Source: a plasmid
Length of the DNA stretch: 4,234 nucleotides
Strand: one strand, 5' to 3'
Assembly: GCF_056746865.1 (NCBI RefSeq)
Contig: NZ_JBWKMP010000009.1
Shown: positions 1-4,234 of the stretch, piece by piece
How positions within the stretch are numbered: position 1 is the first letter of the stretch
Layout of the letters: each line of letters starts with the position of its first letter
Program-made: the position numbers and the translations under genes
Notes under the pieces: generated by a model
The model's input: the letters and a program-made list of their open reading frames with translations, nothing else
What the model was told of the DNA's origin: nothing
The model's database searches: none

Positions 1-50
1 GCACACAATCGAAACGAAGTGAAGATTGTATAAGTGCGCACTTCGTGATG
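1..50. other. oriT: Putative MOBQ-type origin of transfer (oriT): nic-like core TAAGTGCGC at 31-39 inside a perfect 12-bp palindrome AAGTGCGCACTT (32-43), flanked by short inverted repeats
   Basis: Seen in sequence: TAAGTGCGC at 31-39 matches the nic-region core I recall for RSF1010/R1162 oriT (GTAAGTGCGCCCT). Inverted repeats at 14-21/39-46 (ACGAAGTG/CACTTCGT) and 5-10/24-29 (ACAATC/GATTGT). Position fits a divergent mobA-oriT-mobC arrangement if the window is circular. Recognition is from memory; no alignment was run. Confidence 0.45.
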
Positions 51-73
51 TGCCGTGCATTATGCCAGCTCAG

Positions 74-132
74 TTTTTAAACTACCAGTGACGCGATAAA
101 ATGCGATTTTTCATCGCGTACGGAGTTACATC
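74..132 (+). promoter_or_regulatory. Putative mobC promoter and operator region: -35-like TTTAAA (76-81), -10-like TAAAAT (97-102), CGCGAT/GCGAT/ATCGCG repeat set (92-118), SD GGAG (122-125)
   Basis: Seen in sequence: sigma70-like hexamers with a short 15-bp spacer. A small hairpin GCGAT-TTTTC-ATCGC (103-117) lies between the -10 and the SD, and CGCGAT (92-97) pairs with ATCGCG (113-118). GGAG sits 7 nt before the ATG at 133. Promoter assignment is inference only. Confidence 0.3.
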
Positions 133-408
133 ATGAGCAGAACGCTCGAACAGAAGATTGCCGAAGCTGAGGCCAGATTACAGCGCCTGAAGGCGAAGAG
201 CCGGAGCCTGGACACTGCGCAAAAAGTCATTGTGGGAGCAGCCATGCTGGCGAGGGTACGGAGGCCGGAAGAGGCGCAACTGCGTGCGTTCCTGCTCCAG
301 TTCCTGCGAAAGGAAGTCACAAGACAGGCCGATGTGAACCGGCTACAACCACTGATTAACGAGCTGGAGAAGCTACCAAGACCACCTGCGAAACCGCAGA
401 ACGGATAA
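133..408 (+). CDS. mobC: MobC/TraD-family relaxosome accessory protein, 91 aa (MOBQ mobilization accessory protein)
   Basis: ORF with an SD. The N-terminal coiled-coil-like segment (EQKIAEAEARLQRLKAK) and central motif QKVIVGAAMLARV resemble RSF1010 MobC (about 94 aa; recalled motif RKVLVGAMILAKV). Small size and apparent divergent placement relative to mobA across oriT fit. Homology is recalled, not searched. Confidence 0.75.
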   Translation: MSRTLEQKIAEAEARLQRLKAKSRSLDTAQKVIVGAAMLARVRRPEEAQLRAFLLQFLRKEVTRQADVNRLQPLINELEKLPRPPAKPQNG

Positions 409-1968: not shown

Positions 1969-4188
1969 TCACATACTCATGCCCCGGTAATGTCCGGGGC
2001 GTCGTTGTTGTTGCCTGTGCTGTTCGTCCCGCTTCCATTCATGCCAGGTCTGATTAAATCCGAGTTGACGGAAGAGATAATCCGGCATCTCTTCCGGTTT
2101 GTGGACAGCAGCCAAAAGCCTGTCATGATGGCCTTTGAGCCGGAACTGCATCAGGTGCGGTTCCGGTGGGTACGGAGTATCCGCATCATGGTTTATAGCT
2201 TCTCCGTAACCTGCCAGGCATACCCCGTTCTCCGTGATGGTGCTGACTATCAGATGACTGTAATCCGGCGACGGAAGCGCAAGAACGGGACGCAGCCCGT
2301 CCTCCTGACGCACAAATCCGACAAGCACTTCCTCCGGCCCTTTGCACAACAGCAGATTCAGCGTCCTGCTGTTTCGCTCTGTCGAAAATACAACGGGCAT
2401 GAGTTGCTCCGGTGCCGCATAAGCGGTGACGTCCACCCGGTGCGCAGACGGCAGCGGAGAGGCTACGGGCCTGCGGTCGTCGCTGAAATAAAAATTATCC
2501 GGCCAGTGATGCGGCAGCGCCGGAAAACCGTAAGAGGGCCACCCCTGGCGCATCTGTTCCAGTACATGCCGGACCGTCGCACCGGAATACATTCTCACAC
2601 GCTCAGGCCGCGCCATCGTCTCATGAGATTCTGGCATTCCCTCACGTATATCCGAGACCATCACAGCCCCGCCTGGCGACAGGTAAACATTCACCGGGTC
2701 ATGAACACTCTGGGGGTAATGCGCCAGCTCATCACCCCATACCGTGAATTCTCCGGCTCTGTTACTCAGCATCATGTAGCGGGTTATCCTGCCCGTTCCC
2801 GGCTCTCTGGCACGCCCCAGCCCCGTAATAACCCCGGCTAATGCCGTTTCACGGCTCAGGCGATGGTTATCATGGTGTTTCAGCCGTGCGTCATATTCCT
2901 GTTCCTTCCGGCGCGCTTCCGCTTCGGCTTCCTCCCTGCGCCGCTCCGCTTCCCGTGCTGACAGTTTTTCTTTCAGCTCTGCCATTCCCGGCGAAATCCA
3001 CGTATTCCACTGCGTTTCAAAGGCCTGACGACGGGCGGGAATGTCCCGTTCTTTCACGGCCCTGTAGGTGCGGCGAAGAGATTCAATCTGTTTCTCGAGT
3101 TTCCAGAAGCGGAGTTGTCTTTTGCGGTATTCCGGTTCAGCCCATGTCATCAGGGGAAGCTCTGACAGGATGGACGCTACCGGACGGGCTTTTCTGAGTC
3201 CGGTCATCTCTTTTTCGAGAATATCCCGCTCTTTCACCAGCGCATTCCCCTCACGTTTGATGTCGTTTGCCTTCCCGTTCATCGCCACGAACTCCGGTGT
3301 CATCTCCCATGCGTTCCCGCATTCCTGCGGCAGTGTGGCAATGAATTCCCGCAGGGTATCCGCTGAGGCATTCGCGGCGGGAATGGTCAGATTAAGGGCT
3401 TCCGCTGCACGACGTGCGGCATCGCTGAGTTCCCGTTTCCGCACGTTCTCCTGTACCTGGATGACTGCCAGCCTTGTGCGGGAAACCTGTATTTCCAGGT
3501 TAAGGCTGTTAATCAGGCGGTTCTGCTCACCGCGTTCTGTTTCCATGCCCCGTTTTTCCATCGCACAGGCAGCCTTTCCGAGGTGAAGGCCCGGCGCTTT
3601 CTCCAGTCCCTGACGCTCGTATGAACGATGGTCTATCTCTTCCTGGTAGCCGGCGTTCGCAAGCGCTCTGTTCGCATGGTCAGCCCATGATGCGCGCCAC
3701 GTCTCGGCGAGTGCCCGGTCGTTCCAGTCCCTGACCTTTCCTGCGAATCCCGTTTCCCCGACAGCTCTCGTGGTCAGCATGATGTGTGCATGGGGGTTGG
3801 TCCGGTCCATATGATGGAACGCCACATCGGCAATCATGCCCCGACTGACAAAGTTTTCCCGGACAAAAGCGAGAACGGCCTCCCGTGCGGCCTCGCGGGA
3901 AATCTCACGGGGAATGGCGAGTTCAATCTCCCTTGCCAGCTGGGAGTTCCGGCGCTGTTCGGCTTTCTCGACCGCATTCCAGAGAACGGAACGGTCACCA
4001 CACCAGGACGGTGCATTCACAGGGGTGAGAATGACCGCATCATCAACGCCGCGTTTACGGGTGTAATCGTGGGTTAATCCGGTACGGTCATCGGGTATGA
4101 CAGAGCCGGAACGGTAGGCAGCAGAAGCAACGGCACTGTAGCCGTTTTTTCGCGAAATGATTTTCATGCTGAGATGATAAATCGCCAT
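1969..4188 (-). CDS. mobA: MOBQ-family relaxase MobA (MobA/MobL-type), 739 aa: N-terminal relaxase domain, charged coiled-coil linker, about 295-aa C-terminal domain of unknown function
   Basis: The N-terminus MAIYHLSMKIISRKNGYSAVASAAYRSG closely resembles RSF1010 MobA (MAIYHLTAKTGSRSGG...), with the catalytic Tyr at residue 25 (codon 4114-4116). His-rich metal-binding motif HHMDRTNPHAHIM is at residues 125-137 (about 3778-3816). The charged linker spans residues about 405-440. The C-terminal domain (about 1972-2856) was not recognized. Confidence 0.9.
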   Translation of the reverse strand: MAIYHLSMKIISRKNGYSAVASAAYRSGSVIPDDRTGLTHDYTRKRGVDDAVILTPVNAPSWCGDRSVLWNAVEKAEQRRNSQLAREIELAIPREISREAAREAVLAFVRENFVSRGMIADVAFHHMDRTNPHAHIMLTTRAVGETGFAGKVRDWNDRALAETWRASWADHANRALANAGYQEEIDHRSYERQGLEKAPGLHLGKAACAMEKRGMETERGEQNRLINSLNLEIQVSRTRLAVIQVQENVRKRELSDAARRAAEALNLTIPAANASADTLREFIATLPQECGNAWEMTPEFVAMNGKANDIKREGNALVKERDILEKEMTGLRKARPVASILSELPLMTWAEPEYRKRQLRFWKLEKQIESLRRTYRAVKERDIPARRQAFETQWNTWISPGMAELKEKLSAREAERRREEAEAEARRKEQEYDARLKHHDNHRLSRETALAGVITGLGRAREPGTGRITRYMMLSNRAGEFTVWGDELAHYPQSVHDPVNVYLSPGGAVMVSDIREGMPESHETMARPERVRMYSGATVRHVLEQMRQGWPSYGFPALPHHWPDNFYFSDDRRPVASPLPSAHRVDVTAYAAPEQLMPVVFSTERNSRTLNLLLCKGPEEVLVGFVRQEDGLRPVLALPSPDYSHLIVSTITENGVCLAGYGEAINHDADTPYPPEPHLMQFRLKGHHDRLLAAVHKPEEMPDYLFRQLGFNQTWHEWKRDEQHRQQQRRPGHYRGMSM

Positions 4189-4234
4189 TTCTGCCGTAAT
4201 GCCTTTTTGCCGTTTTCTTTTAGCGTCGCAGACC

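Follow-up and report, generated by a model that had tools for sequence, protein, structure and literature searches.

Repeats at the predicted mobC promoter of a MOBQ4 plasmid appear to be a coincidence of one rare allele over well-conserved sequence

The stretch of DNA analysed here, called the window throughout, comprises the whole of a small circular plasmid, 4,234 bp long and with three genes, rep, mobC and mobA. The core of its origin of transfer (oriT) lies between the two mobilisation genes and runs across the start of the circular record. An earlier note, made from the DNA sequence alone, had taken the reading frame at 133-408 for the mobC of a MOBQ plasmid, and this is borne out by the published description of the family (PMC6856555), by the annotation of homologues and by homology to IncQ MobC. 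The genes and the oriT core are as follows.

1522-614, minus strand: ColE2-type replication gene (Pfam Replicase and PriCT_1)
1969-4188, minus strand: mobA, a 739-aa MOBQ4 relaxase, oriented away from mobC (MobA_MobL, 1e-69; NCBIfam MobQ, 1.8e-77)
133-408, plus strand: mobC, a 91-aa relaxase accessory protein placed by homology in the IncQ-MobC / Ti-TraD family (homologues annotated MobC)
4215-4234, plus strand: left part of the oriT core, across the start of the circular record, with a small hairpin in which 4225-4227 pair with 4231-4233
1-48, plus strand: right part of the oriT core, with the hairpin ACAATC (5-10) / GATTGT (24-29) and then TATAAGTGCG followed by CAC

The mobA-mobC intergenic region (4189-4234 joined to 1-132) measures 178 nt. 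Garcillan-Barcia et al. (2019) described the MOBQ4 family, in which the 178 bp between the divergent genes mobA and mobC serve as oriT, deletion of mobC lowers mobilisation by 0.6-1.5 log, and MOBQ42 is the subgroup with a ColE2-type Rep (PMC6856555). The window has all of the corresponding traits, namely a MOBQ4 relaxase, a small mobC, the 178-bp intergenic oriT and a ColE2-type Rep, and shares them with the MOBQ42 prototype ColE9-J; on its sequence, the plasmid is assigned to the published MOBQ4 family with a ColE2-type replicon. A search with the whole plasmid returned 1,588 records of related plasmids, for the most part from Escherichia and Salmonella; these include the colicin plasmids ColE3-CA38 and ColE9-J as well as plasmids of 4,234 bp that are 98.5-99.2% identical. 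The MOBQ42 plasmids of the 2019 paper are colicin carriers, the operon being present in all of them (PMC6856555), whereas the 4,234-bp window encodes rep, mobC and mobA only and has no colicin operon, as is the case for many of its 4,234-bp relatives. Salmonella and E. coli have yielded many copies of this colicin-less plasmid of MOBQ42 type, and poultry was the source of several. At 1487-1610, over the rep start and leader, Rfam gives a match to PK-repBA that stays below threshold (27.3 bits; gathering score 45); this is the place at which antisense RNA controls ColE2 plasmids (PMC6856555). The 2019 paper makes no mention of promoters or regulation in MOBQ4 plasmids (PMC6856555), no later paper was found that covers them, and in the papers found the transcription start has not been mapped for any MOBQ4 plasmid.

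By analogy with RSF1010 the nick would fall between 38 and 39; within 4215-48, TATAAGTGCGCAC comes directly after the hairpin ACAATC (5-10) / GATTGT (24-29). A metagenome scan with the 17-nt nick-site sequence gave 120 DNA stretches, and in the metagenomic loci with an identical nick site (L012-L131) the stem of this hairpin varies in sequence and retains its pairing, as in the variants ACATTGC..GCAATGT, ACATCGC..GCGATGT and ACAAAC..GTTTGT. Some of the contigs (L044, L076 and L111) carry two or three tandem copies of a 9-nt unit, GCACTTCGT / GCACTTTGT, directly after the nick site, at about window positions 39-47. Upstream of the nick-proximal repeat, a second, small hairpin (4223-4234 joined to 1-2) keeps its pairing by a double change, with GT (4225-4226) / AC (4232-4233) in nine unique family sequences versus CC / GG in 24 of the 33, and distant elements have comparable small hairpins of other sequence in the corresponding position. 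Mob-less plasmids of about 2 kb (H88-H100) share only 4215-48 with the window and nothing beyond. Given that these oriT-only plasmids share just this segment, oriT excludes 92-118; the proposal that 92-118 is part of oriT was rejected on this ground and on the co-varying hairpins, which lie upstream of the nick site. The 2-kb plasmids with an oriT core (L010, L011 and H88-H100) have other replicons, ColpVC and Col(MP18), and look as though they borrow MOBQ4 relaxases for their transfer.

Between the oriT core and mobC, the following elements were found or predicted.

59-67, minus strand: TGgCATAAT, predicted extended -10 of the divergent mobA promoter
74-79, plus strand: TTTTTA, weak -35-like hexamer of mobC (3/6), 17 bp upstream of TAAAAT
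82-87, minus strand: TGGTAG, poor -35-like hexamer of the predicted mobA promoter; conserved, with one A84G variant
91-119, no strand assigned: imperfect inverted repeat with arms 91-101 and 109-119, 10/11 complementary in the window allele only
92-97, plus strand: repeat copy 1, CGCGAT, in the spacer just 5' of the predicted mobC -10 and sharing the first base of TAAAAT
97-102, plus strand: TAAAAT, predicted mobC -10 (5/6 to TATAAT), invariant in 33 unique sequences
103-107, plus strand: repeat copy 2, GCGAT, in the G+C-rich bases that separate the -10 from the predicted start
113-118, plus strand: repeat copy 3, ATCGCG, inverted, in the opening bases of the predicted mobC leader
122-125, plus strand: GGAG, mobC ribosome-binding site, 7 nt before the ATG at 133 and invariant in the family

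The three repeat copies and the TAAAAT hexamer lie exactly where the earlier note had placed them. Its reading of TAAAAT as the -10 of mobC also stands, in that the hexamer belongs to the best candidate in a promoter scan and is invariant in the family. In this position-weight scan, the weights of which follow published promoter compilations, TTTTTA-17-TAAAAT is the top sigma-70-like site of the intergenic region and the second-best on the plus strand of the whole window; a simple, stricter consensus scan listed no promoter at this site. Positions 78-79, at the end of the -35-like hexamer, read GC in roughly one third of the family sequences. Given that TAAAAT is invariant and forms, with TTTTTA, the best promoter-like site between the two genes, 92-118 is best read as the core promoter of mobC. 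On the minus strand, TGgCATAAT ranks second in the intergenic scan with a score of 5.41; first in rank is ATGATG-17-AAAAAT (6.36), which would have its -35 over the mobC start codon and was set aside. TGgCATAAT is nearly invariant, the sole variant being G64A in a metagenome contig (L116). This is also the only variant in the conserved GCATTATGCCA block, and it turns the minus-strand CATAAT into the consensus TATAAT, a change that fits a leftward extended -10 promoter for mobA. With TGGTAG adjoining the -35 of mobC, the two predicted promoters stand back to back, an arrangement that would explain the conserved block at 57-113.

In outline, the segment 92-118 is probably the core promoter and the start of the leader of mobC, in a plasmid of a known family. 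TAAAAT (97-102) would serve as the -10 and TTTTTA (74-79) as a weak -35, transcription would start near 108-111, and the leader of some 22-25 nt would carry GGAG ahead of the ATG. The second promoter, with its extended -10 read from 67 to 59 on the other strand, would transcribe through oriT towards mobA. On this model the first repeat copy would be the end of the spacer, the second the G+C-rich stretch from the -10 to the start and the third the first bases of the leader, and the CGCGAT/GCGAT/ATCGCG pattern would be a by-product of G+C-rich bases that flank A+T-rich promoter elements.

The earlier note had gone further and proposed the repeats as an autoregulatory operator, a binding site for a small dimeric regulator, possibly MobC itself. 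As an arrangement, the repeats exceed chance only marginally. Neither CGCGAT (3 matches in the window, 4.3 expected) nor GCGAT (15 matches, 14 expected) is over-represented. When the 178-nt intergenic region is shuffled, three copies of any 5-mer fall within 25 nt in 5% of cases, and when the whole window is shuffled, in 63%. A second small cluster with two GCGAT copies, GCGATGCGCGAT, lies between rep and mobA at 1826-1837 and is probably due to chance; pPK8275-4kb differs from the window inside it, at 1828. At the mobC promoter, the dyad extends beyond what had been described, with ACGCGATAAAA (91-101) and TTTCATCGCGT (109-119) complementary at 10 of 11 positions across the 7 nt between the arms, and in the window allele this palindrome overlaps the promoter and brackets the -10. 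Of the shuffled intergenic regions, 3.1% contain an inverted repeat that scores 10/11 or better.

Conservation was assessed in 33 unique family sequences, drawn from plasmid records and metagenomes, and the power of any comparison between members is limited by the shallowness of the family, with at least 80% identity among them. Both TAAAAT (97-102) and ATTTTTCA (106-113) are invariant in all 33. The variable positions within 92-118 are 94, 96, 103, 105, 114 and 115, all six of them inside repeat copies, and the bases between the copies show no variation. In copy 1, C94 is replaced by A in four unique sequences, and A96 is private to the window allele, the other 32 of 32 having C. In copy 2, G103 is A in four sequences and G105 is A in one, and in copy 3, T114 is C in 19 of the 33 and C115 is T in one. 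Just outside the segment, position 119 also varies, with C in place of the window's T in 30 of the 33. Diversity per site is 0.042 over the whole of 92-118, made up of 0.066 in the repeat copies and 0.000 in the bases between them, and compares with 0.050 over 57-91, 0.182 over 119-132 and 0.187 at the third codon positions of mobC. Around the invariant GGAG, positions 121 and 127-132 vary freely. The expectation for an operator is conserved half-sites and a free spacer, and given that 92-118 shows the reverse, the pattern counts against one. Nevertheless, the repeat copies are about three times less variable than silent sites, which indicates some constraint beyond that on the -10, and this could come from a bound protein.

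The allele of the window is rare. Of 533 plasmid records with a match to 72-135, 3 are exact, namely ColE9-J (100% identical over this segment), NC_012882 and NZ_CP100536, and some 99% of the family lack the three-copy arrangement. Elsewhere the symmetry of the dyad falls to 8/11 in the common MOBQ41 and MOBQ42 alleles and to 7/11 in the CGAG allele; two family-rare substitutions, C96A and C119T, would simply happen to raise it in the window. The closest whole-plasmid relatives, pSI102-4 and pPK8275-4kb, have two other alleles of this segment, with A94, C96, C114, C119 and A121 in pSI102-4 and C96 and C119 in pPK8275-4kb, where the window has A96, T114 and T119, such that near-identical 4,234-bp plasmids together carry three different alleles of the proposed operator. 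The differences from the closest 4,234-bp plasmids are not evenly spread and fall in dense patches, at 50-180, 2103-2157, 2182-2789 and 1744-1828 of the window. This clustering of differences from pSI102-4 and pPK8275-4kb suggests that segments have been exchanged with other MOBQ4 plasmids by recombination; the patch upstream of mobC in the window is identical to that of ColE9-J.

Seventeen distant elements with the same nick sequence were also examined, 16 of which have an IncQ-type mobC. A promoter-spanning palindrome was rejected as a general trait of elements with this nick site, being present in only two lineages (L061 and L069) of the 17. In these two, long perfect or near-perfect inverted repeats with arms of 14-18 nt (at 50-98 and 137-182 after the nick pattern in L061, at 50-95 in L069) span the promoter-like -10 elements TACAAT and TATAAT and look far more operator-like than the repeats of the window.

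BLASTP aligned RSF1010 MobC with the window protein at 35% identity over 66 aa (E 6e-7), the RSF1010 query being a sequence that IncQ1 plasmids carry at 100% identity, and a 60-homologue profile of the window MobC, with the IncQ sequence left out, gave RSF1010 MobC a score of 32.8 bits (E 2.9e-12). The family comprises 177 representative clusters. Pfam TraD (PF06412) is matched by 6 of 61 family members, with a best E of 2.4e-7, and the window MobC itself has no Pfam or NCBIfam match at threshold. The 2019 paper reported that MOBQ4 MobC has no homology to other accessory proteins (PMC6856555); contrary to that report, the present matches are evidence that it belongs with IncQ MobC and Ti TraD, a grouping that is a useful by-product of the analysis. 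The AlphaFold model of MobC consists of three helices (pLDDT 96.4) and retrieved no match at E<=0.001 in a fold search of the PDB. Nothing in the model points to the fold of a classic dimeric repressor, the type to which RA3 MobC belongs.

Autoregulation as such is another matter. The earlier note had pointed to autoregulation of mob promoters in MOBQ systems, and there is a real precedent: in RSF1010, MobA and MobC together repress the oriT promoters P1 and P3 (mobA/B) and P2 (mobC) (PMC2200642). Given this repression and the homology of MobC, autoregulation is a fair expectation, and by analogy MobA and MobC may plausibly repress the mob promoters here. It might operate here in the manner of RSF1010, with a MobA-MobC complex at oriT (4215-48) that blocks the predicted mobA transcript and hinders the mobC promoter, leaving 92-118 with no specific role in recognition. 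The gene layout and the homology of MobC, RSF1010 itself being regulated in this way, speak for such a scheme, as do the predicted mobA promoter, which reads through the nick region, and the preference of MOBQ4 relaxases for their own oriT, on which they act in cis (PMC6856555). The predicted mobC -10 is, however, some 60 nt from the nick site, and as an account of the segment this scheme is considered unlikely; it is compatible with the core-promoter explanation and not opposed to it.

Recognition of the repeats or of the dyad at 91-119 by MobC, with or without MobA, such that binding over the -10 and the start represses mobC, is judged improbable. Its position, bracketing the -10 and the predicted start, would suit a repressor, the 10/11 symmetry of the window allele is uncommon in shuffled sequence, the CGCG cores are retained in most alleles of a segment that is constrained overall, and MobC is homologous to a protein that takes part in repression at RSF1010 oriT. 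There is also the MobC of RA3, which regulates itself through a palindrome within its own promoter (PMC4175270), but this is an unrelated ribbon-helix-helix protein. Against the operator stands first the pattern of variation: the half-sites vary and the spacers do not, the half-sites neither stay conserved nor change together among related plasmids, and no compensating change links the two arms. Second, the three-copy pattern occurs in fewer than 1% of relatives, the dyad is reduced to 7-8/11 in the common alleles and near-identical plasmids differ in their alleles of it. Third, the MobC model, with its three predicted helices, shows neither a ribbon-helix-helix nor a helix-turn-helix and matches no solved DNA-binding fold, so that a recognised sequence-specific fold is missing from the proposed regulator. 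The reading of the repeats as operator half-sites is thus unsupported. Had it proved correct, a widespread family of small plasmids of enterobacteria would have had its first regulatory site, and a poorly understood family of accessory proteins a DNA target.

A weaker form of the same idea is that the CGCG at 92-95 and at 115-118 is a low-affinity site for a three-helix protein of the MobC/TraD family, bound more tightly in the rare 10/11 allele of ColE9-J type. Were this so, natural alleles would set different levels of mobC self-repression and hence of mobilisation, but it is slightly less probable again than the full operator. An inspection by eye of the segment against the IHF and DnaA-box consensus sequences gave no convincing match. 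Least likely is that the inverted repeat acts as a hairpin, either as RNA structure in the mobC leader or as a weak leftward terminator (117 to 103, then ATTTTAT), a candidate that was rejected because, although a consensus scan marks 117-103 of the minus strand as terminator-like and GCGAT (103-107) could pair with ATCGC (113-117) as a 5-bp stem, folding is at the level of shuffled sequence (z from -0.06 to -1.08) with a different fold for each allele, T114C disrupts the stem in 19 of the 33 unique sequences with no compensating change, a conserved stem is absent, the predicted transcription start excludes the left arm from the mRNA and no Rfam family matches the site.

In summary, nothing in the sequence or its variation marks the CGCGAT-like repeats as the binding site of a regulator, and the case for autoregulation of the mob genes is not tied by evidence to a CGCGAT operator. 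The preferred reading of 92-118 as core promoter and leader start would make the repeats a coincidence of one rare allele over an ordinary, well-conserved promoter, and the analysis also yields, as a by-product, a testable map of two predicted back-to-back promoters beside oriT.

The match in layout to RSF1010 counts in favour of the promoter reading. RSF1010/R1162 (IncQ1, MOBQ1), the layout of which was taken from an IncQ1 plasmid identical to RSF1010 in MobC, resembles the window in having mobA and mobC divergent around oriT and in the nick-site core TAAGTGCGC; in the IncQ1 plasmid, as in the window, the inverted repeat is followed by TAAGTGCGCCCT and then by mobC, which in either plasmid starts about 90 nt from the nick site. 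The promoter sequences, in contrast, are unrelated, and the RSF1010 promoters are described as overlapping oriT, whereas the predicted mobC -10 of the window stands apart from the nick site. Furthermore, autoregulation in RSF1010 is tied to the complex at oriT and not to a separate palindrome. The mechanism that the earlier note proposed for the window is that of the IncU plasmid RA3, in which MobC represses its own promoter, beside oriT, via the imperfect palindrome OM inside that promoter (PMC4175270). RA3 MobC is, however, a 176-aa ribbon-helix-helix protein associated with MOBP relaxases (PMC4175270) and is unrelated to the predicted three-helix MobC of the window. In the Ti plasmids, TraD is encoded beside oriT and traA; the N-terminus of the window relaxase matches Ti-type TraA models, and TraD is the Pfam family reached by some of the window MobC's relatives, although, unlike those TraD-matching homologues, the window MobC itself falls below every Pfam threshold.
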